From Ruminococcus albus 7 = DSM 20455 (GTDB lineage Bacteria; Bacillota; Clostridia; Oscillospirales; Ruminococcaceae), in NCBI RefSeq assembly GCF_000179635.2, contig NC_014833.1, positions 2,730,001 to 2,762,000 on the forward strand: a DNA stretch of 32,000 nt, written 5' to 3'. This document shows, piece after piece, positions 1-20,502 of the stretch. The notes under the pieces were generated by a model that worked only from the letters and a program-made list of their open reading frames with translations, was not told where the DNA came from and searched no databases. Position numbers and translations under genes: made by a program. Within the stretch, counting starts at the first letter, position 1. Each line of letters begins with the position of its first letter.

Positions 1-1128
1 AGCTTCAAGTATATCCTGTGTGGAGGGGTTCATGGTCTGACCGCCCTTTACAACACAGTCAACACCGAGGTCCTTGAACATGGTCTCGATACCGTTGCCT
101 GCGGCTACTGCAACAAAGCCGAACTCGTTGGTCTGCTCAGCGGGAGTAAAGGCGCTCTTGGCTTTTTTCTGCTCCTTCTCATGCTGGAGCTTCATGTTCT
201 CCACCTTAGGGAAGTTTATATAACCGAATTCAAGGCCTTTTTCAATAGCCTTGCCGGGGTTGTTGGTGTGTACGTGCACCTTGATTATCTCATCATCATC
301 AACTACGACCACGCAGTCACCGATAGTCTCAAGGTATGCCCTCAGCTTGATGGGGTCATCACAATCGGGCTTTTTGGTTATGAGCATCTCGGTGCAATAG
401 GTGAAGTTTATCTCAGCATCATACTGACCTACTACCGATGAGAATGTATCCACGGTAACAGCACCCTCGGCCTCAACAGTCTTCTTTTCCACAGGCTGAG
501 CCTTCTGCTCAACTATCTCACCGCCCTCAAATACATCTCGCATAGCCTCAAATATTATCAGCAGACCCATTCCGCCTGCATCCACAACACCTGCTTTAGC
601 AAGTGCCGGCAGAAGCTTGGGTGTCTTATCAAGAGTGATCTTTGCCTGTGCGCATACATCAGCCATGACAGCCCGTGGATCATTTGTGGACTTCAGTGTT
701 TCCCTTGCCTTTTCAGCCGCTTCCCTCGCCACCGTGAGTATAGTACCCTCAGTGGGCTTCATTACCGACTTGTACGCGCCCTGAACACCAAGTTCCAGCG
801 AATTTACAAGATCTTCGGCACCCATCTCGCTCTTTCCTGCAAGACCCTTTGAGAATCCTCTGAATATAAGAGAAAGTATAACGCCCGAATTTCCTCTTGC
901 ACCCCTCAGCAGACATGATGCCGCTGTGCTTGCAACAGTACTTACAGGTACATTATCACCCAGATTCTCAAGTTCAGCCACCGAATTATTTATCGTCATG
1001 GACATATTTGATCCCGTATCACCATCAGGCACGGGAAATACATTGAGCTCGTCCACAGACTTCTTTTTATTTGTGATACTGTGCGCACCGCTGATAAAAG
1101 CACGGCGCAGCATATTTCCGTTTATCAC
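1..1128 (-). CDS. DAK2 domain-containing protein (YloV-like); C-terminus runs off the left window edge
   Basis: My translation of the reverse strand gives VINGNMLRRAFISGAHSITNKKKSVDELNVFPVPDGDTGSNMSMTI...LLRGARGNSGVILS...GVVDAGGMGL, typical of DAK2/YloV proteins. GTG start at 1128 lies 6 nt after the AGGAGGAG RBS (1135-1142). It is not in the ORF track because no stop codon lies in the window. It follows an Asp23 gene, as in many Firmicutes. Confidence 0.85.
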   Translation of the reverse strand, partial: MINGNMLRRAFISGAHSITNKKKSVDELNVFPVPDGDTGSNMSMTINNSVAELENLGDNVPVSTVASTAASCLLRGARGNSGVILSLIFRGFSKGLAGKSEMGAEDLVNSLELGVQGAYKSVMKPTEGTILTVAREAAEKARETLKSTNDPRAVMADVCAQAKITLDKTPKLLPALAKAGVVDAGGMGLLIIFEAMRDVFEGGEIVEQKAQPVEKKTVEAEGAVTVDTFSSVVGQYDAEINFTYCTEMLITKKPDCDDPIKLRAYLETIGDCVVVVDDDEIIKVHVHTNNPGKAIEKGLEFGYINFPKVENMKLQHEKEQKKAKSAFTPAEQTNEFGFVAVAAGNGIETMFKDLGVDCVVKGGQTMNPSTQDILEA

Positions 1129-1825: not shown

Positions 1826-1877
1826 ACATCATATCATACTAAACAACTCGGAAATATTCTTTGAAAGGACGTTTGTC

Positions 1878-8488: not shown

Positions 8489-8938
8489 ATGAAGATCTCA
8501 ACAAGAGTTGAATACGGGATCATAGCACTTGCAGACATAGCGATAAACGGTGCCAACGGCAAGACCGTTTCATCATCGGATATATCCGAAAGACAGGATA
8601 TATCTCAGAAATATCTGGAGCAGATTATCATAAGCCTGCGTCAGGGCGGATTTGTAAAAGGTCAGAAAGGCTCGCGCGGCGGATATATGCTTTCTCGTCC
8701 TGCCGAGAAAATATATCTTTCTGAGATTCTCAACGCACTCGACAACAGCATCCTTGCCGATGCTTATGAGGAAAGCGAAGAGAATACAGCAGGGATGCGT
8801 AACTCGGTAAACTGTTGTCTTTGGGACAAAATAAACAGCTATATGCGCAGCTTCACCGAACAGATGACCCTTGCCGACCTGATAGCGGGACACAAAGAAA
8901 ACACTGAGGATCCCGAGATCAATATGTACTATATATAA
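8489..8938 (+). CDS. Rrf2 family transcriptional regulator (CymR/IscR-like)
   Basis: MKISTRVEYGIIALADIA N-terminus and the winged-helix segment ISQKYLEQIIISLRQGGFVKGQKGSRGGYMLSR are canonical Rrf2. The IscR-type 3-Cys cluster-ligand pattern is not obvious. Confidence 0.9.
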   Translation: MKISTRVEYGIIALADIAINGANGKTVSSSDISERQDISQKYLEQIIISLRQGGFVKGQKGSRGGYMLSRPAEKIYLSEILNALDNSILADAYEESEENTAGMRNSVNCCLWDKINSYMRSFTEQMTLADLIAGHKENTEDPEINMYYI

Positions 8939-10281: not shown

Positions 10282-10614
10282 CTATACCAGCTTATCCTCA
10301 ATAAATCTGTTTAGTACCGCGTCAATAGGTCCGCTTACCTCAAACACTCTCACTCCCCTGCCTATGAGGTATGCTGCTGCACCCTCACCTATCTTCTGGA
10401 CCAGTACTGCGTCACAGTCCGCGAGAAGTTCGATGATCTTGTCAAAGCGTGTAGTGTCATGCCCAAGTGTCTGTTGTGTAACTGCTACTGCATCACGCAC
10501 ATCACTGAATGTGTATCCGTCTTCGCCAAGATCATAAACCCTGAAAAACTTTGCGTGCCCGAAGTGTTCGTTGACGGTGAATCCGTCAGAAGTTGCTATT
10601 GCCAGTCTTGACAT
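10282..10614 (-). CDS. NifX/NifB-C-terminal-like FeMo-cofactor-binding domain protein (copy 2)
   Basis: 110 aa. MSRLAIATSDGFTVNEHFGHAKFFRVYDL...CDAVLVQKIGEGAAAYL matches the dinitrogenase FeMo-cofactor-binding (NifX/NafY/NifB C-terminal) domain pattern. Confidence 0.8.
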   Translation of the reverse strand: MSRLAIATSDGFTVNEHFGHAKFFRVYDLGEDGYTFSDVRDAVAVTQQTLGHDTTRFDKIIELLADCDAVLVQKIGEGAAAYLIGRGVRVFEVSGPIDAVLNRFIEDKLV

Positions 10615-10628
10615 AGTATCATTCCTTT

Positions 10629-10661
10629 CAAAAATATCTCCTGCCGGGTGACAGGAGATAT
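10629..10661 (-). terminator. Intra-operon hairpin with T-run (partial terminator/attenuator or RNA-processing site)
   Basis: Perfect 10-bp stem ATATCTCCTG / CAGGAGATAT (10634-10643 / 10652-10661) with an 8-nt loop. It is followed on the minus strand by TTTTT and sits in the 52-nt gap between the NifK-like and NifX-like genes. Confidence 0.5.
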
Positions 10662-10666
10662 TTTCT

Positions 10667-12007
10667 TTATTTATATGTTGCCAATGAGGTATTGTAGATG
10701 TCCTCTATTACTCTCAGACCGCCTGTATAACCAACGTAATTTGTAGTCAGCACTATGCGGTAAGGTGTGGGGCAGGCTATCGAAAGAAAGTCTGCGTCTA
10801 TTTCTCCTGCAAGTTCCTTGTCCCAGCCGCTGCCGAGTATAAGTCCTCTTCCCTTGTGTTCAAGACCTCTGATAACGTCCTGCATTGCACCTGCATCTGG
10901 ATCAAAGTATACAGGTATATCACGCTTGTCAGATACCGACTTTATCTCAGCTTCTATCTCGTCCTGATACTTCTTGGGAACATTGTCCACAATGAACTGC
11001 TCCTTGGGAACTACACCTGTTTCATGAAGCAGGAATTTGGTAAGACCAACTACATATCCCGAATCATGCAGAATATGTGCATAGGAAGGCAGACCGTAAC
11101 GGAATTCCAGCAGGAATGTTGCCAGATTGTCAAGCTCCTCGTAGTAAGCCTTTTCTTCCTCCTCAATGAACTTCTTAGCTTTCTTCTCGTCTATCTCTGC
11201 GCCCTGTTCAAGTGCGAATGCAAGCACGCCGTTCAGGAACTTTGTAGTCTCGTTTGCACCGATAGGCAGATAGCCGAACTTGAAGTAAGGCTGACCGTAT
11301 CTTCTCTGAAGATTCTTTACTATGGGCTCACCGTACCAGGGAGATACGAACACATTGAAGTTCGCCTTGGGTATGGTCTGCCATTCCTTTACACCGCCCG
11401 AGTGGGGTCCGAAAAGGATATTGACTTTCAAGCCCAGACCTTCAAGCAGACGCTTGTACTCTTTAAGGTTGCCCTTCCAGAACTGATCCTGATAGGGTAT
11501 GGAAGCTATAACGTTAACAAGATTTTTCTCAGAACGAGAAGGATTATCATCTTCAAAACGGCTTACGTACTGATCGATGATAGCATTTACCACAGCCGAA
11601 TGTGATACATAGTTGTTGGATTTGAAACCCGAAGTTTCAACGTGAACTATGGGTCTGTCCTCCTCAAAAAGGAACTCATCCGTTACGCTTGCAACGTCAT
11701 CACCTACGATACCTGCGGTACATCCCGTGACTACTACCTGCAGGTCTGTATCAAGCACCTTGTAGGTGTTCTTTATAATATTGCGAAGTCTGTCGGTACC
11801 ACCGAATACTACTTCCTTTTCGCTGAAATTAGTACAGGGTGCGGTTTCACCGCCTGCATAGCCTGCCGAACGCTCAAAAAAGCCCTTTATCATAACTCCG
11901 CAGCCCGGTCCTGAATGAAGTATCGGTACAGCGCGGGGGATAGCTACTACAGTCTGCAGTGCTCCGATGGCACAAGTGTAGCGCTCCTGTTCAATAAGTC
12001 CTGCCAT
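10667..12007 (-). CDS. Nitrogenase component-1 family protein, NifK/NifN-like (beta-type subunit)
   Basis: 446 aa. Cys motifs YTCAIGALQ, HSGPGCG and VTGCTAGIVGDD align by eye with P-cluster ligands Cys70/95/153 of NifK. AAAGGAG RBS, 14 nt after the NifD-like stop. Confidence 0.85.
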   Translation of the reverse strand: MAGLIEQERYTCAIGALQTVVAIPRAVPILHSGPGCGVMIKGFFERSAGYAGGETAPCTNFSEKEVVFGGTDRLRNIIKNTYKVLDTDLQVVVTGCTAGIVGDDVASVTDEFLFEEDRPIVHVETSGFKSNNYVSHSAVVNAIIDQYVSRFEDDNPSRSEKNLVNVIASIPYQDQFWKGNLKEYKRLLEGLGLKVNILFGPHSGGVKEWQTIPKANFNVFVSPWYGEPIVKNLQRRYGQPYFKFGYLPIGANETTKFLNGVLAFALEQGAEIDEKKAKKFIEEEEKAYYEELDNLATFLLEFRYGLPSYAHILHDSGYVVGLTKFLLHETGVVPKEQFIVDNVPKKYQDEIEAEIKSVSDKRDIPVYFDPDAGAMQDVIRGLEHKGRGLILGSGWDKELAGEIDADFLSIACPTPYRIVLTTNYVGYTGGLRVIEDIYNTSLATYK

Positions 12008-12021
12008 ATATTATTTCTCCT

Positions 12022-13491
12022 TTACTTTCCCAAGAATGTATAAGGCTCCTGCTCAAGCCACCATTTGGTATAAGGGTTTGTTGAATGCTTAGCCAAATTC
12101 TTTACGAACTCATCGTTCTCGATGGTTTCGAGTATTCTCTCACCGTAGTTTACAAGACCCTCATAACCCATACCGAAATGCTCATCGCCTACCAGCAGCG
12201 AGGGTATACCAAGCTTAGCGCCCCAAAGGGTCATGCCGCCGTGACGTGCCAGAAGTATATCGGGCTTGATGCGGTTGAGTACGTTCACAAGTTCAAATTC
12301 CTGCTTGTTGCAGACATTGTAGTTTGGCACATCGCCGTAATCTGCAACAGTATGGCTGAGTGTATCTGCACGCTCGTCCTCGTTATCGTACTGAGGATCA
12401 TGGTGGAATATTGCAGCGCCCTGAGGTTCCATACCCAGTTCTTTCAGCAGTGCCAGCAGAGAATGTCCGTGGGAAGCACCTGCTGTAACGTAAGCGGTCT
12501 TGCCCTTCAGCTTCTCACGCAGAGCTTCTATCTTTGGCATATATTCAGCCTTCTTGCGTGCAAGGAATTCTTCAACTTCCTTTTCCTTGCCGATTATCTG
12601 ACCAAGCTCCCTGAACCAGCGGTCTGTCTGTGCAATACCGTAAGGAGGTGAATTACGTATCTCAGGTACACCGAAGCCCTGCTCCAGCGCAGCACCAAGA
12701 TATGAACCAAGTGTTGAGCAAGCCTGTACAGTAAGTGCAGCTTCACTTGAATAGCTGAGCGAATCAACAGTCGCAAAAGGAGTAATATAGTTTGGCTCAT
12801 ATCCGAACTCAGCAAACCACTCACGGAAAATATCACTGCCCCAGAAGTTGATAACATTGATGATATTTCTCTTCTGTCTTGCAGGCTTGATTATCTTTCT
12901 GGCGATGCCGTGGTATCCCGCATCGAAGCCCGATGTCCACATCTTTGAACGGAAGCCCTCGCAGAATACTGCAACAACCGGTATACCAAGCTCTTTCTGA
13001 GCCGCATTTGTTACGCTCTCAACATCATCACCGATGATACCTGCAGCACAGGTAGTTATAACGAATATCGCACTTGGCTTAGCACGCTTGTGTACCTCGC
13101 GTATAGCGGCTTCAAGCTTCTTGCCGCCGCCGTAAATGGTATCCTTTTCTTCCAGATTGGTAGAGTAAATCTTTCTCTGTGTGGGATGTTCAAGCTGTCT
13201 GAGGTATGCATTAACACGGTAGGTGAATGCAAACTCATGCAGGCAGGTCGAGCATCCGACAGGACCGTGGGAGATTATCGCAGCGTCCTGGATAAGGGTC
13301 AGTGTACAGGCTGCATTTGATGTTCCGCAGCCAAGGCACTGGCTGAAAGAACGATTCTTGTCCTTCATCTTGCCGCCGCAGGCAGCGCAGGCATCAACGA
13401 GTTCTTTAGCTGTTCCCTGAAATCCCGTGATCGAGTTAAGACGTATCTCACGGATCTCGACTTCGGGTATATTCAAATTGACTTTACTCAT
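12022..13491 (-). CDS. Nitrogenase component-1 family protein, NifD-like (alpha-type subunit)
   Basis: 489 aa. LGCG, ISHGPVGC and TTCAAGIIGDD match the P-cluster ligand positions. QACSTLGSY aligns by eye with NifD HCYRSMNY (Cys275), and GDEH with REMH (His442). AAGGAG RBS, 16 nt after the NifH-like stop. Confidence 0.85.
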   Translation of the reverse strand: MSKVNLNIPEVEIREIRLNSITGFQGTAKELVDACAACGGKMKDKNRSFSQCLGCGTSNAACTLTLIQDAAIISHGPVGCSTCLHEFAFTYRVNAYLRQLEHPTQRKIYSTNLEEKDTIYGGGKKLEAAIREVHKRAKPSAIFVITTCAAGIIGDDVESVTNAAQKELGIPVVAVFCEGFRSKMWTSGFDAGYHGIARKIIKPARQKRNIINVINFWGSDIFREWFAEFGYEPNYITPFATVDSLSYSSEAALTVQACSTLGSYLGAALEQGFGVPEIRNSPPYGIAQTDRWFRELGQIIGKEKEVEEFLARKKAEYMPKIEALREKLKGKTAYVTAGASHGHSLLALLKELGMEPQGAAIFHHDPQYDNEDERADTLSHTVADYGDVPNYNVCNKQEFELVNVLNRIKPDILLARHGGMTLWGAKLGIPSLLVGDEHFGMGYEGLVNYGERILETIENDEFVKNLAKHSTNPYTKWWLEQEPYTFLGK

Positions 13492-13507
13492 CTTTATATC
13501 TCCTTCA

Positions 13508-14371
<864 letters not shown>

Positions 14372-14452
14372 TTACCTCATTTCATATAATTGATATATCG
14401 TATACCTTTGTGGTACTGTGATATATTCTTTTTTAACAACATATTAATTTTT

Positions 14453-15334
14453 CTACCCGTGTGAGAATGTATCCTTACGGGATAACCTCTTTAAGTTTGT
14501 GTATATCTTGCTTCCCAGATCTTCACCGCCGGGAATGCCTACCGCATCTGCGCGGCATCTCTGACAATGCCTGAAAACATCGATATACTTTGAAGCTTTC
14601 AGTACCGCTCTCTCGAACTCCATGCAGTCGGGTTCGCGGCAATCCTTCAGCTTTGCGTTCGGTATAAGCGGGATAATATTGTATATATCCGCACCTGCTT
14701 CCGCAACGGTCTTTGCCACTTCTTCGATATGATCACCGTTTATCTCGGGAACGAACACGGTGTTCACCTTTACTGTTATTCCTGCCTCGCTTATTATGCG
14801 TATACCCTTCAGCTGCTGCTCGATGAGTATCTCAGCGGCTTCAACACCGGTGTAGTGCTTGCCATGCCATACGATACCATCATTGAGCTGAGCTTCTATC
14901 TCAGGATCTACAGCGTTTACAGTCACCGTAAGTGAATCCACACCCACGTCAATTATCTCCTGAGCCTTTTCAGCCAGCAGCAGACCATTAGTGCTCATAC
15001 ACTTCACAAGCTGCGGAAACTCCTTCTTTACCAGCCTGAATGTTTCCAGCGCGTATGGACTTGCAAGTGTATCACCCGGACCTGCTATACCTGCTACGTG
15101 TATGGCAGGACATAGTTCAAGTGCCTTGCCGATAGCCTCTATGGCTTCCTCAGGTGAAATGACCGTCGAGGTAACACCCGGACGTTTCTCGTATGTATTT
15201 ACGCTGCGCTCACAGAATCTGCACTGGATATTGCAGGTCGGGCTGACAGGCAGATGCATACGACCGTTGCCGCTGTTTGGTCCCTTTGCAAAGCATGGAT
15301 GCTTTGTTGTCAGTTCTTCGTATGAGACCGCCAT
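14453..15334 (-). CDS. nifB: NifB-like radical SAM protein (stand-alone SAM domain, no fused NifX domain)
   Basis: HPCF...GRMHLPVSPTCNIQCRFCERS...RPGV is the NifB N-terminal/radical-SAM signature. I prefer ATG 15334, which lies 6 nt after the GGAGGT RBS. The ORF-track start at 15373 lacks an RBS. Confidence 0.85.
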   Translation of the reverse strand: MAVSYEELTTKHPCFAKGPNSGNGRMHLPVSPTCNIQCRFCERSVNTYEKRPGVTSTVISPEEAIEAIGKALELCPAIHVAGIAGPGDTLASPYALETFRLVKKEFPQLVKCMSTNGLLLAEKAQEIIDVGVDSLTVTVNAVDPEIEAQLNDGIVWHGKHYTGVEAAEILIEQQLKGIRIISEAGITVKVNTVFVPEINGDHIEEVAKTVAEAGADIYNIIPLIPNAKLKDCREPDCMEFERAVLKASKYIDVFRHCQRCRADAVGIPGGEDLGSKIYTNLKRLSRKDTFSHG

Positions 15335-15681
15335 TTGTCCACCTCCCATTGTTTTTCTTCCATCAGCAGACATAGTGCCTGCTCTATACTCAGAGGGATC
15401 TGGTATACTCTTATACCCTGCTCCTCTATATACTTCTTAGCTCCCGGACCTGCTCTCTGAGCTACCACTGCGCTGACATCGCCAAGCGCATCCAGGGCTG
15501 CTGCAAATCCCGATACCTCATGTTGTCCGCCGTTACATGACGGTTTCACATCAACGTGACCGCCAATATCATAGTCGTCCTTCTCAGTATCGATCTCTGC
15601 GATATAAAACTTTTTTGCCGCACCGAAATGCTCGTTAATGTTTTCGCCGTCGCTGCTTGCAAATGCGATCTTATAAATCAT
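15310..15681 (-). CDS. NifX/NifB-C-terminal-like FeMo-cofactor-binding domain protein (copy 1)
   Basis: 123 aa. MIYKIAFASSDGENINEHFGAAKKFYIAEI...VSAVVAQRAGPGAKKYIEEQGIRVY. It has the same domain family as 10282-10614. Its 3' end overlaps the NifB-like start by 25 nt. Confidence 0.8.
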   Translation of the reverse strand: MIYKIAFASSDGENINEHFGAAKKFYIAEIDTEKDDYDIGGHVDVKPSCNGGQHEVSGFAAALDALGDVSAVVAQRAGPGAKKYIEEQGIRVYQIPLSIEQALCLLMEEKQWEVDKWRSHTKN

Positions 15682-15700
15682 CTAAACCATCTTTTCTCCA

Positions 15701-16609
15701 TCAGCCGAATAATCCCGTGCTGAAATATCTGTCACCTCTGTCCGGCAGGACTGCAACGATAACGCCCTTTTCGATCCTCTTTGCCAGCTTCAATGCCGCA
15801 GCGGCCGCAGCACCTGAGGATGAACCTGCTATGATTCCCTCATTACGTGCAAGCTGTCCTACTGTCCTGAAAGCATCATCGTCATTCACCTTGATGACTT
15901 CGTCTACCAGACCTATGTCCATCGTTTCAGGTATAAAATCATTACCGATACCCTCAATATTATAATCGAAGTGTTCGCCGCCTCCTATGGTCGAGCCTTC
16001 GGGGTCTGCAAGCACGCCAACGATATTCGGGTCATGCTCCTTGAGGTATCTTGCTATACCTGTGTAAGTTCCGCCGCTGCCTGCGCCTGCGACGAAATGT
16101 GTGACCTTTCCGCCGATATCCTCCCATATCTCTCTGCCCGTATTCTCATAATGTGCCAGAGGATTGTTGGGATTCTTGAATTGCTCCAGTGATATCGAAT
16201 CGGGTATCTGTGCTTTAAGCTCCTCAGCCTTGCGCACAGCTCCCAGCATTCCCTCAGCGCGGGGTGTATTTATCACCTCAGCCCCCAGCGCCCTCATAAG
16301 AGCTTGTTTTTCAGCGGAAAACTTAGTCGGGACTGTGAATATTACTCTGTAGCCTTTTCCAAGTGCTGCGAATGCTATACCGAGTCCCGTATTGCCTGCG
16401 GTAGCTTCTATAATAGTACTGCCCGGCTTTAAGCGTCCCTCTTTTTCAGCAGCAGCTATCATGTATTCGCCTATGCGATCCTTAACACTGCCCGAGGGAT
16501 TATACATCTCCAGTTTACCATATATCTGTACATCGGGGGAGACCCCCATATTATTCAGCCTCACAAGCGGTGTGTGACCTATGAGGTCATGCATATTCTC
16601 ATATATCAT
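15701..16609 (-). CDS. cysK: Cysteine synthase family PLP enzyme (CysK / MccA-type O-acetylserine-dependent sulfhydrylase or cystathionine beta-synthase)
   Basis: 302 aa. HTPLVRL, PLP-lysine motif PSGSVKDR, TAGNTG loop and GAGSGGT. The start is separated by 1 nt from the upstream stop (TGAtATG), which suggests translational coupling. Confidence 0.88.
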   Translation of the reverse strand: MIYENMHDLIGHTPLVRLNNMGVSPDVQIYGKLEMYNPSGSVKDRIGEYMIAAAEKEGRLKPGSTIIEATAGNTGLGIAFAALGKGYRVIFTVPTKFSAEKQALMRALGAEVINTPRAEGMLGAVRKAEELKAQIPDSISLEQFKNPNNPLAHYENTGREIWEDIGGKVTHFVAGAGSGGTYTGIARYLKEHDPNIVGVLADPEGSTIGGGEHFDYNIEGIGNDFIPETMDIGLVDEVIKVNDDDAFRTVGQLARNEGIIAGSSSGAAAAAALKLAKRIEKGVIVAVLPDRGDRYFSTGLFG

Positions 16610-16610
16610 A

Positions 16611-17768
16611 TCACTTTACCTCGCTTGCTTTTATTGCATTGTCAAGATCTTCCAGTATATCGTCTATATTCTCGATACCTATGGAAAGTCTTATCAGACC
16701 ATCTGTTATGCCTACCTTTTTACGTATATCCTCAGGGATAGATGCGTGTGTCATGCTTGAAGGATGGCATACCAGTGATTCAACACCACCAAGACTTTCT
16801 GCAAGTGTGATAAGCTGCAGACTTTCAAAGAACACTCTGATATCGTAGTTGTCCTTCAGCTCGAAGGATATCATCACGCCGCCGTTCTTAGCCTGTTTCC
16901 TGTTCACCTCATAACCCTTGTCAGATTCAAGTCCCGGATAATGAACGCTCTTAACAGCTTCATGTCCGGTAAGGAATTTTGCAGCAGCCTCAGCATTAGC
17001 TACGTGCCTGTCAAGTCTTACTCCCAGTGTCTTGATACCTCTTATCAGCAGGAAACTGTCAAACGGAGGAAGTACTCCGCCTGTGGAATTCTGTATGAAA
17101 GCTATCTTTTCAGCAAGCTCCTTGGTCTTTACAACTGCAAGACCTGCAACTACATCACTGTGTCCTCCGAGATACTTGGTAGCTGAATGTACTACTATAT
17201 CAGCACCCAGTTCAAGGGGTCTTTGCAGATAGGGGGTCATGAATGTATTATCAACTATCACCAGAAGATTATGCTTGTGAGCTATCTCAGCGATCGCCCT
17301 TATATCTGTTATTGTCATCAGAGGGTTTGCAGGACTTTCGATCAGTACTGCCTTTACATCCTCTGTGATATCCTTCTCAAAAGCAGCAGGATCATCAGTT
17401 TCTGATATCGTATAGTTTATACCGAAGTGATCAAATACCTGATTCAGCAGCCTGAAAGTACCGCCGTATACATTTGAGGATATCAGCACCCTGTCACCCG
17501 TATGCAGAAGACTGAGTACAGCAGTTTCAGCAGCAAGACCGCTCGCAAATGCAAATCCTGCATATCCTCCTTCCAGTTCTGCGATAAGTGCTTCAAGTGC
17601 TTCCCTTGTGGGATTGCCTGTACGGGAATATTCATATCCTCTCATCTTGCCAAGACCATCCTGCTTGAATGTTGAGGTCTGATATATAGGTACATTCACA
17701 GCACCCGTTCTTTCGTCAGTGGATATACCGCCGTGTATCAAAGCTGTTTCTATTTTTTTGTAACTCAT
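16611..17768 (-). CDS. Cys/Met-metabolism PLP-dependent enzyme (cystathionine gamma-synthase/lyase, MetB/MetC/MccB class)
   Basis: IHGG...PIYQTSTF...YSRTGNPT...SATKYLGGHSDVVAG (PLP Lys). About 385 aa from ATG 17768 (MSYKKIETALIHGG). The ORF-track start at 17843 adds a non-homologous 25-aa extension that covers the predicted promoter. Confidence 0.88.
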   Translation of the reverse strand: MSYKKIETALIHGGISTDERTGAVNVPIYQTSTFKQDGLGKMRGYEYSRTGNPTREALEALIAELEGGYAGFAFASGLAAETAVLSLLHTGDRVLISSNVYGGTFRLLNQVFDHFGINYTISETDDPAAFEKDITEDVKAVLIESPANPLMTITDIRAIAEIAHKHNLLVIVDNTFMTPYLQRPLELGADIVVHSATKYLGGHSDVVAGLAVVKTKELAEKIAFIQNSTGGVLPPFDSFLLIRGIKTLGVRLDRHVANAEAAAKFLTGHEAVKSVHYPGLESDKGYEVNRKQAKNGGVMISFELKDNYDIRVFFESLQLITLAESLGGVESLVCHPSSMTHASIPEDIRKKVGITDGLIRLSIGIENIDDILEDLDNAIKASEVK

Positions 17769-17814
17769 ATCTTTCATTCCTTTCATATTTTTCCTATGTG
17801 CTTGGTATGAATTA

Positions 17815-17843
17815 ATGATACACGATAAATCCGATTTAGTCAA
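17815..17843 (-). promoter_or_regulatory. Putative sigma-A promoter of the PLP-enzyme/nitrogenase-like operon
   Basis: On the minus strand: TTGACT (17838-17843), 17-nt spacer, TATCAT (17815-17820), about 45 nt upstream of ATG 17768. A weaker alternative (TTGATC-16-TAACAT) lies at 17919-17946. Confidence 0.45.
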
Positions 17844-17851
17844 CAGCGAAG

Positions 17852-17869
17852 CGTGATAACGTTATCACG
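17852..17869. promoter_or_regulatory. Operator O1: perfect 18-bp palindrome CGTGATAACGTTATCACG (LacI/GalR-type site)
   Basis: The sequence is perfectly self-complementary around a central CG. It lies 8 bp upstream of the predicted -35 and matches the general LacI-family consensus TGnnAnCGnTnnCA. Confidence 0.7.
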
Positions 17870-17965
17870 TCTATGTTCCCCATGTCATGATTTCTATATC
17901 CCGGCGGGTGATTTCAGGATGTTAGAGTAAATAATTTTTTGATCAATTATTAATCTCGCCGTTAC

Positions 17966-17983
17966 GGAGATAACGTTGTCACG
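17966..17983. promoter_or_regulatory. Operator O2: GGAGATAACGTTGTCACG (15/18 match to O1)
   Basis: It shares the core GATAACGTTGTCAC. The central CG is 114 bp from that of O1. Confidence 0.55.
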
Positions 17984-18053
17984 CTGTATCCCCCTGAATA
18001 CTTGCTTGTCTTCTCGCATCCGTCAGCACTTTTATATGTATTTGCCCAAATCC

Positions 18054-18071
18054 AGTGATAACGTTATCGTT
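18054..18071. promoter_or_regulatory. Operator O3: AGTGATAACGTTATCGTT (core GTGATAACGTTATC identical to O1)
   Basis: 14-nt core identity with O1. The central CG is 88 bp from that of O2. It lies just downstream of the LacI-family gene. Confidence 0.6.
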
Positions 18072-18085
18072 TTATTGCAAGCATT

Positions 18086-18109
18086 ATGCCGACGATCTGT
18101 CATCGGCAT
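18086..18109 (-). terminator. Hairpin after the LacI-family gene (weak terminator, no T-run)
   Basis: Stem ATGCCGACGA / TCATCGGCAT (9 of 10 pairs) with loop TCTG, 12 nt after the stop. No U-tract follows on the minus strand, so read-through into the operon is possible. Confidence 0.35.
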
Positions 18110-18120
18110 TAAACTTATAT

Positions 18121-19194
18121 TTATATATAGTACTCAGGTTCGTTGAGCTCTCTGTAAGGCTGGCAGCTCTCACGTATGACCAGCGTACCTTCCACCTCCA
18201 GCCGCGATACTATTTTATGACCGCCTTTTATGCGGTCAAGCAGCAGCATCAGTGCGAACCTTACCATTTCGTTTTTCGGAAGTGATATGGTCGTCAGCAT
18301 CGGCTTGGTATACTGTGCCGCCTCAATATCATCACTGGATATCACTGACGGTGCATACCCGCGTCCTCTTCGCCTGTTTAGAGCTTTCAGCATACCCACA
18401 GCCAGGATATCATTTGCACAGTATATACCCGTAGGCGGATCATCCAGATTGCTGAAATATTCCATAGCCGCGATACCGTTAGCCTCATTGGGCAGCGTAT
18501 CGAAGATATGATCAATATCAGGTGAAAGACGGTTGTTTGTCAGCGCCGCCTGATATCCCGCAAAACGCGATTCATTATGGCAATCACCAACGTATCCTAT
18601 TTTTGTGTGTCCCAGCTTTGCCAGATACCCAACAGCCGTCTGTGCTATCCTGCTGCCGTCACACAAGACCTCGTCCGCCTCGTAATTAGTTGAATTACGG
18701 TTTATGGAAACTATATTCTTTTCCTTGGTTTTAAGCAGCTTCAGCGCTCTGGCTGTAACCTTGCCTATCACAATCAGCCCGTCGGAATGCTGTCCCGATG
18801 AAGGATAAAGCTCATCTGTCAATATTTTTAGCCTGTCAGTCTTACTCAGCTTTTCATCAGAGAACTCAGCGTTATGCCATATATTACCTATTATACAGCT
18901 GCTGTTGCGAAGTTCCTTTTCCAGGGTCATCAGCATTTCTTCATAAAACGGATCTGTAGTTTCATGAGCAAATCTGGTCAGCAGTATATTCACGTGGTAT
19001 ATCTTGTCCTCATTCCTGCTGCCCGATCTAAGGGAACGTGCGCTCGCATTCGGTATATAGTTGATCTCACGTGCTGCTTCCAGCACTCGCTTTCTCACAT
19101 CTTCGCTGGAGCATTTGTGGTTGGGATCACTAAGTATCCTGCCGACCGTCGAGACTGATACACCCGTCATTTCGGAGATCTTTTTCAGAGACAC
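18121..19194 (-). CDS. LacI/GalR family transcriptional regulator
   Basis: The N-terminal HTH (V)SLKKISEMTGVSVSTVGRILSD...YIPNASARSLRSG is followed by a periplasmic-binding-protein-like effector domain. GTG start lies 7 nt after the GGAGGG RBS. 357 aa. Confidence 0.9.
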   Translation of the reverse strand: MSLKKISEMTGVSVSTVGRILSDPNHKCSSEDVRKRVLEAAREINYIPNASARSLRSGSRNEDKIYHVNILLTRFAHETTDPFYEEMLMTLEKELRNSSCIIGNIWHNAEFSDEKLSKTDRLKILTDELYPSSGQHSDGLIVIGKVTARALKLLKTKEKNIVSINRNSTNYEADEVLCDGSRIAQTAVGYLAKLGHTKIGYVGDCHNESRFAGYQAALTNNRLSPDIDHIFDTLPNEANGIAAMEYFSNLDDPPTGIYCANDILAVGMLKALNRRRGRGYAPSVISSDDIEAAQYTKPMLTTISLPKNEMVRFALMLLLDRIKGGHKIVSRLEVEGTLVIRESCQPYRELNEPEYYI

Positions 19195-19237: not shown

Positions 19238-19266
19238 ATTATACCAAATATCTGGAAATTTGTCAA
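19238..19266 (-). promoter_or_regulatory. Consensus sigma-A promoter for the LacI-family regulator
   Basis: On the minus strand: TTGACA (19261-19266), 17-nt spacer, TATAAT (19238-19243), about 40 nt upstream of the GTG start. Confidence 0.6.
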
Positions 19267-19481: not shown

Positions 19482-19506
19482 ATGGTTATCCCTTTAACAC
19501 ACCACA
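19482..19506. repeat. IS left terminal inverted repeat
   Basis: ATGGTTATCCCTTTAACACACCACA. The reverse complement of 20478-20502 differs at one position. Confidence 0.8.
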
Positions 19507-19594
19507 GATAATTTACAATGCTGTCCAAATAAACAGACCTCAAAAACCGGAAAATATAGTATAATAGTGACAGGAAACGAAAGGAGCTGTCGCT

Positions 19595-20470
19595 ATGTCA
19601 AAAAGATTTCCGAAACCTGAGATCACACTTGATGGGATATATTCAAAGTTCGCAGATGAAAGCTTTTGCAAGGATTTTCTGCTTGATATCCGCTTTGAAA
19701 AGGGCTTTGCCTGCCCGTTTTGCGGTGGCTCTGAGTACCGCAGGATAAGGTCACGCCATCTGCTGCGCTGCAAGTTCTGTAAAGCAGATATATCCGCCAC
19801 AAACGGAACTTTTATGCACAGAACACATATTCCGCTCAGACTGTGGATAGTCACCGCATTCCTCATTATGAGCAACAAATGCAGTGTTTCTGCTGTTACG
19901 CTGATGAGGTCTTTGGGGGTGACCTACAAGACTGCATGGTACATCCTTCACCGCATCAGAAAAGCTATGAAATGCCGTGAAGAACGCTATTTGCTCGACG
20001 GAATCGTTGAACTTGATGACACGTATCTCGGTGCTCCGACTCACGGTAAAAAGCGCGGCAGAGGTACTGAAAAAGTCAAGATGATCGTAGCTTTATCGAA
20101 GAACGCAGCAGGAAATCCCGAGTACGTTAAAATGAGAGATGTGCCGAATTTAAAGGGTATAACTGTGGGTAGATTTGCCAGGGATAATATCCGCGCTGGC
20201 TCGAAGATCGAGAGTGATAATGCTCGAAGTTACAAGAAACCGTTGGCACAGAAATACTTCCATGTTTTTGAAACATATGATCCGACAAGCGGTCAGCTGA
20301 ATTGGATGCATAAAGTTATATCAAACTTCAAAGCAATGATCATGGGAACTTACCACGGAAACGAAAAGATCCACACAGCGTTATATGCTGCCGAATACTG
20401 TTACAAATTCAACCGTCGTAAGCTGGGAAACAGTGCGTATTTAAGGCTTTTGGCTGCTTTGGTGCAGTGA
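19595..20470 (+). CDS. IS1595 family (ISXO2-like) transposase
   Basis: 291 aa with an N-terminal zinc ribbon (CPFCGGSEY...RCKFCKADIS), then a DDE region (VELDDTYLG...IESDNARSY...). This architecture matches IS1595/ISXO2-like transposases. AAAGGAG RBS. Confidence 0.85.
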   Translation: MSKRFPKPEITLDGIYSKFADESFCKDFLLDIRFEKGFACPFCGGSEYRRIRSRHLLRCKFCKADISATNGTFMHRTHIPLRLWIVTAFLIMSNKCSVSAVTLMRSLGVTYKTAWYILHRIRKAMKCREERYLLDGIVELDDTYLGAPTHGKKRGRGTEKVKMIVALSKNAAGNPEYVKMRDVPNLKGITVGRFARDNIRAGSKIESDNARSYKKPLAQKYFHVFETYDPTSGQLNWMHKVISNFKAMIMGTYHGNEKIHTALYAAEYCYKFNRRKLGNSAYLRLLAALVQ

Positions 20471-20477
20471 TCTTACT

Positions 20478-20502
20478 TGTGGTGTGTTAAGGGGATAACC
20501 AT
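20478..20502. repeat. IS right terminal inverted repeat
   Basis: TGTGGTGTGTTAAGGGGATAACCAT, the complement of the left IR with one mismatch. Confidence 0.8.

Follow-up and report, generated by a model that had tools for sequence, protein, structure and literature searches.

Three spaced palindromes upstream of a nitrogenase-like sulfur operon in Ruminococcus albus 7 are probably operators of the neighboring LacI-family regulator

The stretch of DNA analyzed here (the window) covers 32,000 nucleotides of Ruminococcus albus 7 (contig NC_014833.1, positions 2,730,001 to 2,762,000) and contains an operon that joins sulfur amino acid genes to nitrogenase-like (NFL) genes, preceded by a gene for a LacI-family regulator. 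An earlier reading of these letters, made without database searches (the sequence-only reading), noticed three spaced palindromes between regulator gene and operon, which we refer to as O1, O2, and O3, and proposed that the LacI-family neighbor controls the operon through them. Our analysis supports this proposal: the motif is present in 60 of 80 orthologous loci, it varies together with the recognition helix of the regulator, and it recurs in front of other sulfur operons. On these sequence comparisons, we put at about 80% the probability that O1 to O3 are operators of the neighboring regulator and belong to a sulfur regulon. The same regulator subfamily probably controls genes for sulfur acquisition and for cysteine and methionine metabolism in Ruminococcus, other Oscillospiraceae, and Lachnospiraceae.

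O1 (CGTGATAACGTTATCACG, 17852-17869), the candidate primary, promoter-proximal operator, is a perfect 18-bp palindrome with a 14-mer core at 17854-17867. The candidate auxiliary operator O2 (GGAGATAACGTTGTCACG, 17966-17983) is identical to O1 at 15 of 18 positions, and the distal auxiliary site O3 (AGTGATAACGTTATCGTT, 18054-18071), directly after a hairpin behind the regulator gene, has the 14-nt core GTGATAACGTTATC in common with O1. Their centers, at 17860.5, 17974.5, and 18062.5, are 114 bp and 88 bp apart, and on the minus strand the order is regulator gene, O3, O2, O1, promoter, operon. Direct reading of the sequence returned the same positions, match counts, and spacings as had been reported. 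With up to two mismatches, the 14-mer TGATAACGTTATCA has five matches in 32 kb, compared with 0.14 +/- 0.40 expected from 100 dinucleotide-preserving shuffles, none of which reached five. Three of the five fall inside the spacer of 352 bp that separates the LacI-family gene from the operon. The remaining two (22505 and 23289, in the metE and metF coding sequences) were set aside as coding-sequence coincidences: the central CG is missing from one, and the other spells D-A-D-V-I-T in the metE reading frame. Scored with a position weight matrix derived from orthologous sites, O1, O2, and O3 reach 28.8, 22.8, and 19.5 bits and the next best site in the window reaches 14.6 bits, which agrees with the earlier remark that the motif precedes no other gene of the window. 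The ortholog-derived motif, gTGA(T/C)AACGTT(A/G)TCAc, carries ~23 bits and describes palindromes of 16 to 18 bp in which the central CG is invariant; according to a comparative survey, an even palindrome with a central CG is the norm in the LacI family.

The regulator gene (18121..19194, minus strand) starts with GTG and encodes 357 amino acids with an HTH_LacI domain (PF00356, E 6.6e-10) and a Peripla_BP_3 domain (PF13377, E 7.4e-27). Its hinge helix, YIPNASARSLRSG, aligns with that of PurR, YSPSAVARSLKVN, and contains Leu55, which is at least 90% conserved and aligns with the hinge-helix leucine of PurR (Leu54). In this family, the operator is an even palindrome, and the hinge-helix leucine inserts at its central CpG. 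An AF2 model built from 136 sequences reached a pLDDT of 88.6 (an earlier model from 21 sequences, with a pLDDT of 70, was unusable), and its best structural matches are PurR-DNA complexes (E 1e-24) and CcpA complexes, CcpA-HPr-DNA complexes among them. Scores against every named LacI-family model fall far below the cutoff: 136 bits versus 382 for RbsR, 113 versus 501 for PurR, and 70.2 versus 442 for CcpA (TIGR01481). Identity to PurR is ~24%, and the R. albus 8 counterpart is 82% identical. Judged by these scores, the protein is a LacI-family member that belongs to none of the named subfamilies.

Searching with a profile of 21 orthologs recovered relatives from at least 211 species-representative genomes, and sites were counted in 80 regulator-centered loci (L001-L080, 819 kb). 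Of the 60 loci with the motif, 46 have at least two sites and 37 at least three, and the gene order regulator, cystathionine gamma-synthase (CGS), cysK-like, nifX, nifB, nifH, nifD is kept in ~40 of the 80. Of 177 strong sites, 167 are intergenic, and intergenic DNA makes up only 18% of the sequence. When 22 spacers between the regulator and CGS genes were aligned, the conserved islands proved to be O3, O2, O1, the -35 and -10 hexamers, a block spanning the 5' untranslated region (5'UTR) and ribosome-binding site (RBS), and one small unexplained block. Orthologous intergenic regions, which the sequence-only reading had named as the place to look for conservation, thus hold the operators among their main islands. 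Recognition helix and half-site change together: VSVSTVGR accompanies TGA[T/C]AACG in Ruminococcus, SVSTVAR accompanies TGACAACG in the R. bromii group, VSPATVSR accompanies TGAAAACG in Lachnospiraceae, and VSVSTVSR accompanies TGCAAACG in another Oscillospiraceae group. Such co-variation is what a cognate pair predicts, and it argues against both CcpA and an unlinked paralog.

The strong sites of the 819 kb and the window cluster by the regulator gene or by sulfur genes. In the fetched loci they also precede genes for O-acetylhomoserine sulfhydrylase, NMT1-type (sulfonate-like) ABC transporters, and CGS with patB; an operon of thioredoxin, a CysA-like ABC transporter, and an arylsulfotransferase; the sbp-cysTWA sulfate transporter of Blautia; cysK-cysM with JAMM and ThiF genes; and metK with a nifH-like gene. 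In some genomes, a site stands before the regulator's own promoter. No site was found before any carbohydrate gene, GH9 cellulases and sugar transporters included, in the 819 kb of loci and the 32-kb window, which are samples rather than complete genomes.

This regulon is unusual for the LacI family. A survey of 1,281 LacI-family regulons (2014) found ~90% of the regulators studied to be local sugar regulators and carbohydrate effectors in 96% of the groups with an assigned effector, and it never mentions sulfur, cysteine, or methionine. A full-text search returned no literature that connects LacI-family regulators with genes of sulfur, cysteine, or methionine metabolism, with CysK, or with nitrogenase-like operons, and the subfamily is apparently undescribed. 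The sequence-only reading had called such control unusual for Firmicute sulfur genes, and that judgment holds: at gathering scores, Rfam yielded no S-box, T-box, or other family for the window or for 147 kb of sequence from 14 related loci with metK, metY, cysK, and CGS genes. Riboswitch control is ruled out by this null result for the window and these loci.

Could the palindromes belong to another protein? One reading holds that they are cre sites bound by CcpA, which would couple the operon to carbon status and leave the neighboring regulator irrelevant. It can point to TGATAACGTTATCA, one position off the cre consensus (TGWAANCGNTNWCA), and to CcpA's activation of ackA and pta from about -55. 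However, these sites travel with the regulator gene across two orders, co-vary with its recognition helix, and precede sulfur genes only, none being found before the cellulase and sugar genes of the window and loci; positions that are degenerate in cre are fixed in the 23-bit motif, and the regulator itself is not CcpA (70.2 bits versus 442). The motif is thus not the generic cre element that the sequence-only reading had named as a refuting case; model score, the distribution of 167 of 177 sites between genes near regulator or sulfur genes, and co-variation all lead us to reject this reading, which we regard as very improbable. Another reading would assign the sites to an unlinked LacI-family paralog, or to chance or structural repeats. 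Ruminococci do encode many LacI paralogs with similar CG-centered palindromes, and isolated copies of the exact 16-mer GTGAYAACGTTRTCAC turn up in many unrelated metagenome contigs, whatever their G+C content. Yet clusters appear in only 3 of 120 stretches among the matches listed in that metagenome scan: ~116 unrelated ones are single copies without clustering or promoter geometry, whereas the 3 clustered ones share both with our locus, and the two of these long enough to check are the same locus. The shuffles exclude chance, and the sites are co-localized in 60 of 80 ortholog loci and co-vary with the helix, so this reading is scarcely credible. Points that tell against the reading we prefer include the 20 of 80 loci without a strong site (short contigs or clades with a diverged motif) and the closeness of the motif to generic cre.

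We next describe how the sites relate to promoters. The -35 hexamer TTGACT (17838..17843) and the -10 hexamer TATCAT (17815..17820) of the predicted operon promoter, on the minus strand, are 17 nt apart, and a 10-nt spacer of invariant length (17844..17853, minus strand) separates the O1 core from the -35. O1 therefore does lie upstream of the best -35, as the sequence-only reading had it, its core 10 nt before TTGACT-17-TATCAT at 17843..17815. TTGAC is present in all aligned orthologs, and the position of O1 relative to the -35 is kept in 33 orthologous regions and 59 promoters. With TTGnnn-16..18-TAnnnT as the promoter pattern, a promoter begins exactly 10 nt behind the 14-mer in 59 cases among 390 oriented sites, and these cases span at least 10 nonorthologous operons from two orders. 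Apart from this, just two offsets recur, 6 nt and 23 nt, with at most six cases each, and both belong to the promoter of the regulator gene itself in two clades; no further offset has more than two cases. No site overlaps the -35, the -10, or the start at 61 target promoters, all sites lying upstream of the -35. If transcription starts near 17808, 7 nt after the -10, O1 would be centered at about -52.5, and the 5'UTR of the CGS operon would be only ~40 nt long; the conserved RBS GAAAGGAA stands in front of the first start codon of the operon (17766..17768, minus strand, MSYKK...). The alternative promoter considered in the sequence-only reading, at 17919-17946, is not conserved, with a single promoter-like match at that offset.

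Distances between sites are constrained as well. O2 is present behind 48 of the 61 promoter-proximal sites, and the O1-O2 distance is 103 to 105 bp in 23 of these promoters, 113 to 115 bp in 24, and 117 bp in one, so that the two classes differ by one helical turn. This spacing is held even though the intervening sequence is 30 to 37% identical, near the level of unrelated sequence; length rather than sequence therefore appears to be under selection. The O2-O3 distance is 75 to 81 bp (18 promoters) or 86 to 91 bp (22 promoters), and the R. albus 7 window shows the 114 + 88 bp combination. Across the LacI family, adjacent-site distances peak at 13, 22, and 32 bp in the comparative survey, which makes an architecture of 77 to 114 bp atypical.

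The looped three-operator architecture suggested by the sequence-only reading receives indirect support. Its distances are constrained and helically quantized (O1-O2 of 103 to 105 or 113 to 115 bp in 47 of 48 promoters), as in known loop sets, whereas no operator overlaps or follows the promoter. Three further findings count against the proposed arrangement. A LacI-type C-terminal tetramerization helix was not found in the regulator, either in the alignment or in the AF2 model, and the last core strand is followed only by a 13-residue variable linker and EPEYYI, with no heptad leucines. At 10.5 bp per turn, the O2-O3 distances do not share the helical phase of O1-O2. O1 stands alone before the operon in several R. 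albus strains, which makes O2 and O3 dispensable, and for this reason O1 appears to be essential and O2 and O3 auxiliary. LacI joins its dimers through a C-terminal four-helix bundle, and GalR uses an accessory protein, HU. Without a tetramerization helix, looping would need another bridging mechanism; an accessory bridge between dimers, possibly a CysK dimer, is conceivable. In several relatives, including strains with only O1 in the spacer, an operator-like TGACAACGATATCA (~18 bits) lies inside the regulator coding sequence, 181 bp upstream of O1 (L008-L010, L016-L018, L021; 6896-6915). It has no equivalent in the window and may serve as an auxiliary operator or simply reflect conservation of the coding sequence.

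The regulator ends in EPEYYI-COOH (codons at 18124..18141, minus strand), a putative CysK-docking motif. Nearly all orthologs end in [E/D]-Y-[Y/C/F]-I-COOH after a variable linker, with ...EPEYYI in Ruminococcus, ...IEYYI in other Oscillospiraceae, and ...WSDYCI in Lachnospiraceae, and the C-terminal Ile is kept in all but one homolog of the ortholog set and the tail-bearing representatives at ~38 to 50% identity. A search of 1.8 billion representatives found the tail in the nearest clusters (~38 to 50% identity) and in none of the more distant LacI-family members, which end right after the last core strand. In the model, the tail is the part of lowest confidence (mean pLDDT of 61, residues 351 to 357). 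The tails of Staphylococcus aureus CysE (NGEIQDDYII) and CymR (EDLDGYMFYI) are experimentally established to dock on CysK in competition with O-acetylserine; crystal structures of the S. aureus proteins place the terminal Ile carboxylate in the O-acetylserine site, and the CymR peptide binds with a KD of 25 nM. The Arabidopsis serine acetyltransferase (SAT) peptide YLTEWSDYVI is another experimentally established CysK-docking tail, and the C-terminal Ile is reported to be conserved in all CysK partners, which include CysE/SAT, CymR, and CdiA-CT. The regulator tail shows the features of these partners in its sequence: a terminal Ile, an aromatic residue at -2, acidic residues upstream, and a flexible extension. 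Because it matches the established docking tails, there is an even chance, in our estimate, that the regulator docks CysK or the CysK paralog of the operon.

Similar tails are frequent in these loci. Among 719 open reading frames of the 80 regulator-centered loci, 130 end in [Y/F/W]-x-Ile-COOH, compared with ~4 by a rough chance estimate, and only 2 of the 130 are unrelated. Besides the regulator, the bearers include the NifH-like Fe protein (...DDYKI or ...DDYRI), CymR-like Rrf2 regulators (...ADNYVI), and sulfate/sulfonate ABC-transporter ATPases (...QPEYII, ...EAEYMI, ...GLYYI, ...VEYVI). This distribution suggests that CysK may dock many sulfur proteins, and that uptake and the NFL enzyme may come under post-translational control in this way. 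A more far-reaching scheme, which we put forward tentatively, makes CysK the hub sensor of sulfur status in these Clostridia: it would dock the [D/E]-Y-x-I-COOH tails of the LacI-type regulator, the CymR-like Rrf2 protein, the NFL Fe protein, and the sulfate/sulfonate transporter ATPases; as a dimer it would act as co-effector of the LacI-type protein and perhaps bridge O1 to O3 (and the CymR-like protein at the start), and O-acetylserine would dissolve the loop when sulfide is short. The part of the CysK dimer as a bridge between operator-bound dimers is speculative. CysK docking is argued here from motif resemblance, and some close relatives (41 to 48% identical) that have no tail tell against it; one of these, when examined, still adjoined a sulfate-type transporter. 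In that locus (L201; CBDMFE010000015.1, 5866-5984), the tail-less relative (48% identical) is divergent to a sulfate-type ABC transporter (SBP_bac_11); the spacer holds two TGAAAACGTTTGCA sites 103 bp apart, and the transporter ATPase also has no Y-x-I tail.

The sulfur signal might instead be a small molecule, such as O-acetylserine, O-acetylhomoserine, homocysteine, methionine, or SAM, bound in the periplasmic-binding-protein-like pocket as in PurR and LacI, the tail having another role or none. The effector domain is intact and well modeled; F83/Y84, R210, and D262 are conserved and align with ligand-contacting positions of PurR and LacI; the subfamily-specific loop GDCHNExRF is conserved in orthologs; and the tail-less relative adjoins a sulfate-type transporter with two operator-like sites. 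On the other hand, no short segment outside the fold is as conserved as the tail, which follows a variable linker; the tail matches the proven CysK-docking tails residue for residue, and it recurs in the same loci on CymR-like and NifH-like proteins and on transporter ATPases. A pocket ligand and CysK docking are not mutually exclusive. We give the small-molecule reading a substantial but minority share of the probability. An attempt to name the effector from pocket residues was dropped as too speculative; the protein has Asn where PurR has the hypoxanthine-contacting arginine (Arg190).

Based on these observations, we propose a mechanism in which a dimer bound at O1, centered at -52.5, would make a stereospecific contact with the C-terminal domain of the RNA polymerase alpha subunit (alpha-CTD) rather than cover the promoter. 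A dimer at the O1 site never overlaps the core promoter, and this is why contact is preferred to occlusion; the recurrence of the same geometry at the promoters of at least 10 sulfur operons makes a stereospecific contact the most likely form. O2 and O3 would raise and sharpen O1 occupancy by cooperative bridging (looping). CysK docked on the regulator tail would serve as reader of the sulfur signal, and O-acetylserine, accumulating when sulfide is short, would release CysK from the regulator. As to the sign of control, we lean toward activation under sulfur limitation. LacI-family proteins act positively from this region, as CcpA does at ackA/pta from about -55 and GalR does on galP2, and activation is favored for that reason. 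Two considerations pull the other way: repressors make up most of the LacI family, and the core promoters, which come close to consensus (TTGAC-17-TAnnAT, in many cases with TG), have no obvious need for an activator. The placement at -52.5 itself depends on a predicted promoter.

Repression by the same regulator from the same operators is a serious, somewhat less probable alternative. The regulator would then be a classical negative one, with a corepressor (CysK or a small molecule) keeping O1 to O3 bound under sulfur sufficiency, and contact-type or loop-type repression could proceed by blocking use of the alpha-CTD or UP element or trapping RNA polymerase, in either case from -52.5, by looping the upstream DNA, or by roadblocking read-through from the very strong promoter of the regulator gene. 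Contacts with the alpha-CTD are the means by which GalR at OE (-60.5), acting on galP1, and phage phi29 p4 repress strong promoters. Core promoters near consensus, together with the repressor habit of the family, favor a contact or loop repressor. The promoter of the regulator gene itself (TTGACA-17-TATAAT, TG-extended, 19238..19266, minus strand) matches 12 of 12 consensus positions. Behind the regulator gene lies an imperfect hairpin (18084..18107, minus strand) that has no T-tract, and no terminator was called there; read-through from the consensus promoter into O3 to O1 and the operon is for these reasons plausible in R. albus 7, unlike relatives that have a clean terminator at this place. 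In some relatives, the regulator gene ends only ~10 nt before O1. CymR-CysK, moreover, is a repressor complex. The survey lists most LacI-family proteins as repressors that bind DNA without ligand. In contrast, none of the 61 target promoters has a site over the -35, the -10, or the start, the usual positions for a steric repressor, and an exact 10-nt offset across nonorthologous promoters is the signature of positive control by contact. At the sulfate-transporter promoter of Blautia, which shares this 10-nt geometry, both hexamers are poor (TTTAAT / TTTAAT), and a separate putative repressor box already stands at the start of several targets.

The system shares features with several known ones. 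Like CcpA at Bacillus subtilis ackA/pta, which acts positively from a site at about -55, it combines a LacI-family dimer with a CG-centered palindrome upstream of the -35. Unlike CcpA, the regulator is no CcpA ortholog (70 versus 442 bits) and serves a sulfur rather than a carbon regulon, its proposed partner is CysK on a C-terminal tail rather than HPr on the core domain, and it has three length-constrained sites, not one. The co-effector of CcpA itself is a protein, HPr-Ser46-P, rather than a sugar. As with LacI (O1/O2/O3) and GalR (OE/OI), several operators are set at loop-sized distances, here 114 and 88 bp. In Escherichia coli, gal OE and OI are ~114 bp apart and lac O1 and O3 are 92 bp apart, and GalR at OE contacts the alpha-CTD from about -60. 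Unlike in lac and gal, all three sites here are upstream of the promoter, and the tetramerization helix of LacI is missing. PurR supplies the closest solved structures and sequences and has a similar operator core, AAACGTTT; it too is a LacI-family protein taken off sugar control, with a biosynthetic regulon and a non-sugar signal. It acts at single operators that overlap or follow promoters, with a nucleobase corepressor. Identity to PurR is nevertheless low (~24%; 113 versus 501 bits), and PurR has no C-terminal docking tail. The likeness to CymR-CysK lies in cysteine and sulfur control and in the Ile-ending tail (...GYMFYI in S. aureus CymR, ...EPEYYI here); CymR, however, is of the Rrf2 family. 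Since the window holds a separate CymR-like Rrf2 gene (8489-8938), the LacI-type protein would be an additional layer of control, not a replacement. In Rhodospirillum rubrum, SalR (LysR type) and MarS (PadR type) control methylthio-alkane reductase, a nitrogenase-like sulfur salvage system, under sulfur limitation; they differ from our regulator in transcription factor family, organism, and architecture. LacI-family regulators go unmentioned in a review of NFL systems from 2026. By analogy, the system may be described as a cross of CcpA (protein co-effector, upstream site), the multi-operator sets of lac and gal, and CymR-CysK.

The regulated operon (10282..17768, minus strand) encodes CGS, a CysK/CBS-type PLP enzyme, a NifX-like protein, a NifB-like radical SAM protein, NifH-like, NifD-like, and NifK-like proteins, and a second NifX-like protein. 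The first gene product, CGS, is a cystathionine gamma-synthase/lyase-type PLP enzyme whose best NCBIfam matches are cystathionine gamma-lyase/synthase models. The NifH-type Fe protein (13508-14365) scores 460 bits against a nifH cutoff of 394 and ends in ...LKDDYKI, while the NifD-like and NifK-like proteins fall far below nitrogenase cutoffs. The position of the Nif-type genes among cysteine and methionine PLP enzymes marks an NFL system embedded in sulfur amino acid genes. The CysK-type protein of the operon keeps the TxGNTG loop and the QF motif (by eye, against Salmonella typhimurium CysK). The first two genes (15701-17768) match a cystathionine gamma-lyase/homocysteine desulfhydrase model (550 bits, cutoff 594) and CysK/cystathionine-beta-synthase models; they resemble the methionine-to-cysteine pair MccB/MccA of B. 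subtilis. Together with the NFL genes, this pair suggests a route that leads from organosulfur compounds through methanethiol and methionine to cysteine.

Other features of the intergenic region may involve further proteins. The conserved 5'UTR block (TCATACCAAGCACATAGGAAAAAT, 17787..17810, minus strand) is a putative site of a second, Rrf2/CymR-like regulator. As the 24-nt block TCATAYYAARCANNTNGGAAAWAT, it occurs at 17787-17810 (minus strand) and again at 1834-1857 (plus strand), in both cases just after the -10, of the CGS-NFL and the suf operon, respectively; two window copies compare with 0.01 expected, for a pattern that was derived from the same two copies. Related ATAGGAA(T/A) blocks stand in the same place in orthologs, in thioredoxin-ABC promoters, and at relatives' own regulator promoter, and in Blautia a palindrome, ATTCCTATTTAATTAATGGGAAT, abuts the operator. 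The block resembles the CymR box, and the Rrf2 protein of the window, which ends in ...EINMYYI, may be a second regulator at promoters that carry it. A small conserved block in the O2-O1 interval (17925..17954, minus strand), TTAAC-N6-TT-N10-TTACC in relatives, lies ~15 to 45 bp downstream of O2 in spacers of the 114-bp class and overlaps the proposed alternative promoter. In several relatives it reads TTAAC-N5-GTTAA followed by TTACC; it is not a conserved promoter and could be the site of another protein. Autoregulation was considered and rejected for R. albus 7, where no operator adjoins the regulator's own promoter; in relatives, a site lies 6 or 23 nt upstream of its -35.

The rest of the window is also rich in sulfur genes, with sufCBDSU, a gshA-like gene, the Rrf2/CymR-like regulator gene, metA, and metE-metF. 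An IS1595-family element (19482-20502; 30-nt inverted repeats at 19482-19511 and 20473-20502, 90% complementary; transposase at 19595-20470) interrupts the stretch between the regulator gene and metE-metF at ~24 bp before the metE start and separates metE from whatever promoter it had. In many relatives, an O-acetylhomoserine sulfhydrylase gene with three operators of its own lies upstream of the regulator instead.

A conserved subfamily devoted to sulfur, cysteine, and methionine genes would widen the known roles of a LacI family dominated by sugar regulators. Ruminococcus, Oscillospiraceae, and Lachnospiraceae are abundant in the rumen and the human gut, and their genes examined here have none of the S-box or T-box leaders of model Firmicutes. 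The sites also give a first regulatory handle on a Firmicute nitrogenase-like sulfur operon, the known examples of such operons being under LysR-type and PadR-type proteins. The -52.5 geometry and the quantized 104/114-bp spacing offer a test system for contact between a LacI-type dimer, RNA polymerase, and distant sites without a tetramerization domain. If the tail docks CysK, transcription, uptake, and enzyme activity would all be coordinated by a single enzyme, and if CysK is indeed the hub, the regulator would be the first LacI-family factor for sulfur metabolism and the first to come under the control of a moonlighting enzyme docked at its C-terminal tail.

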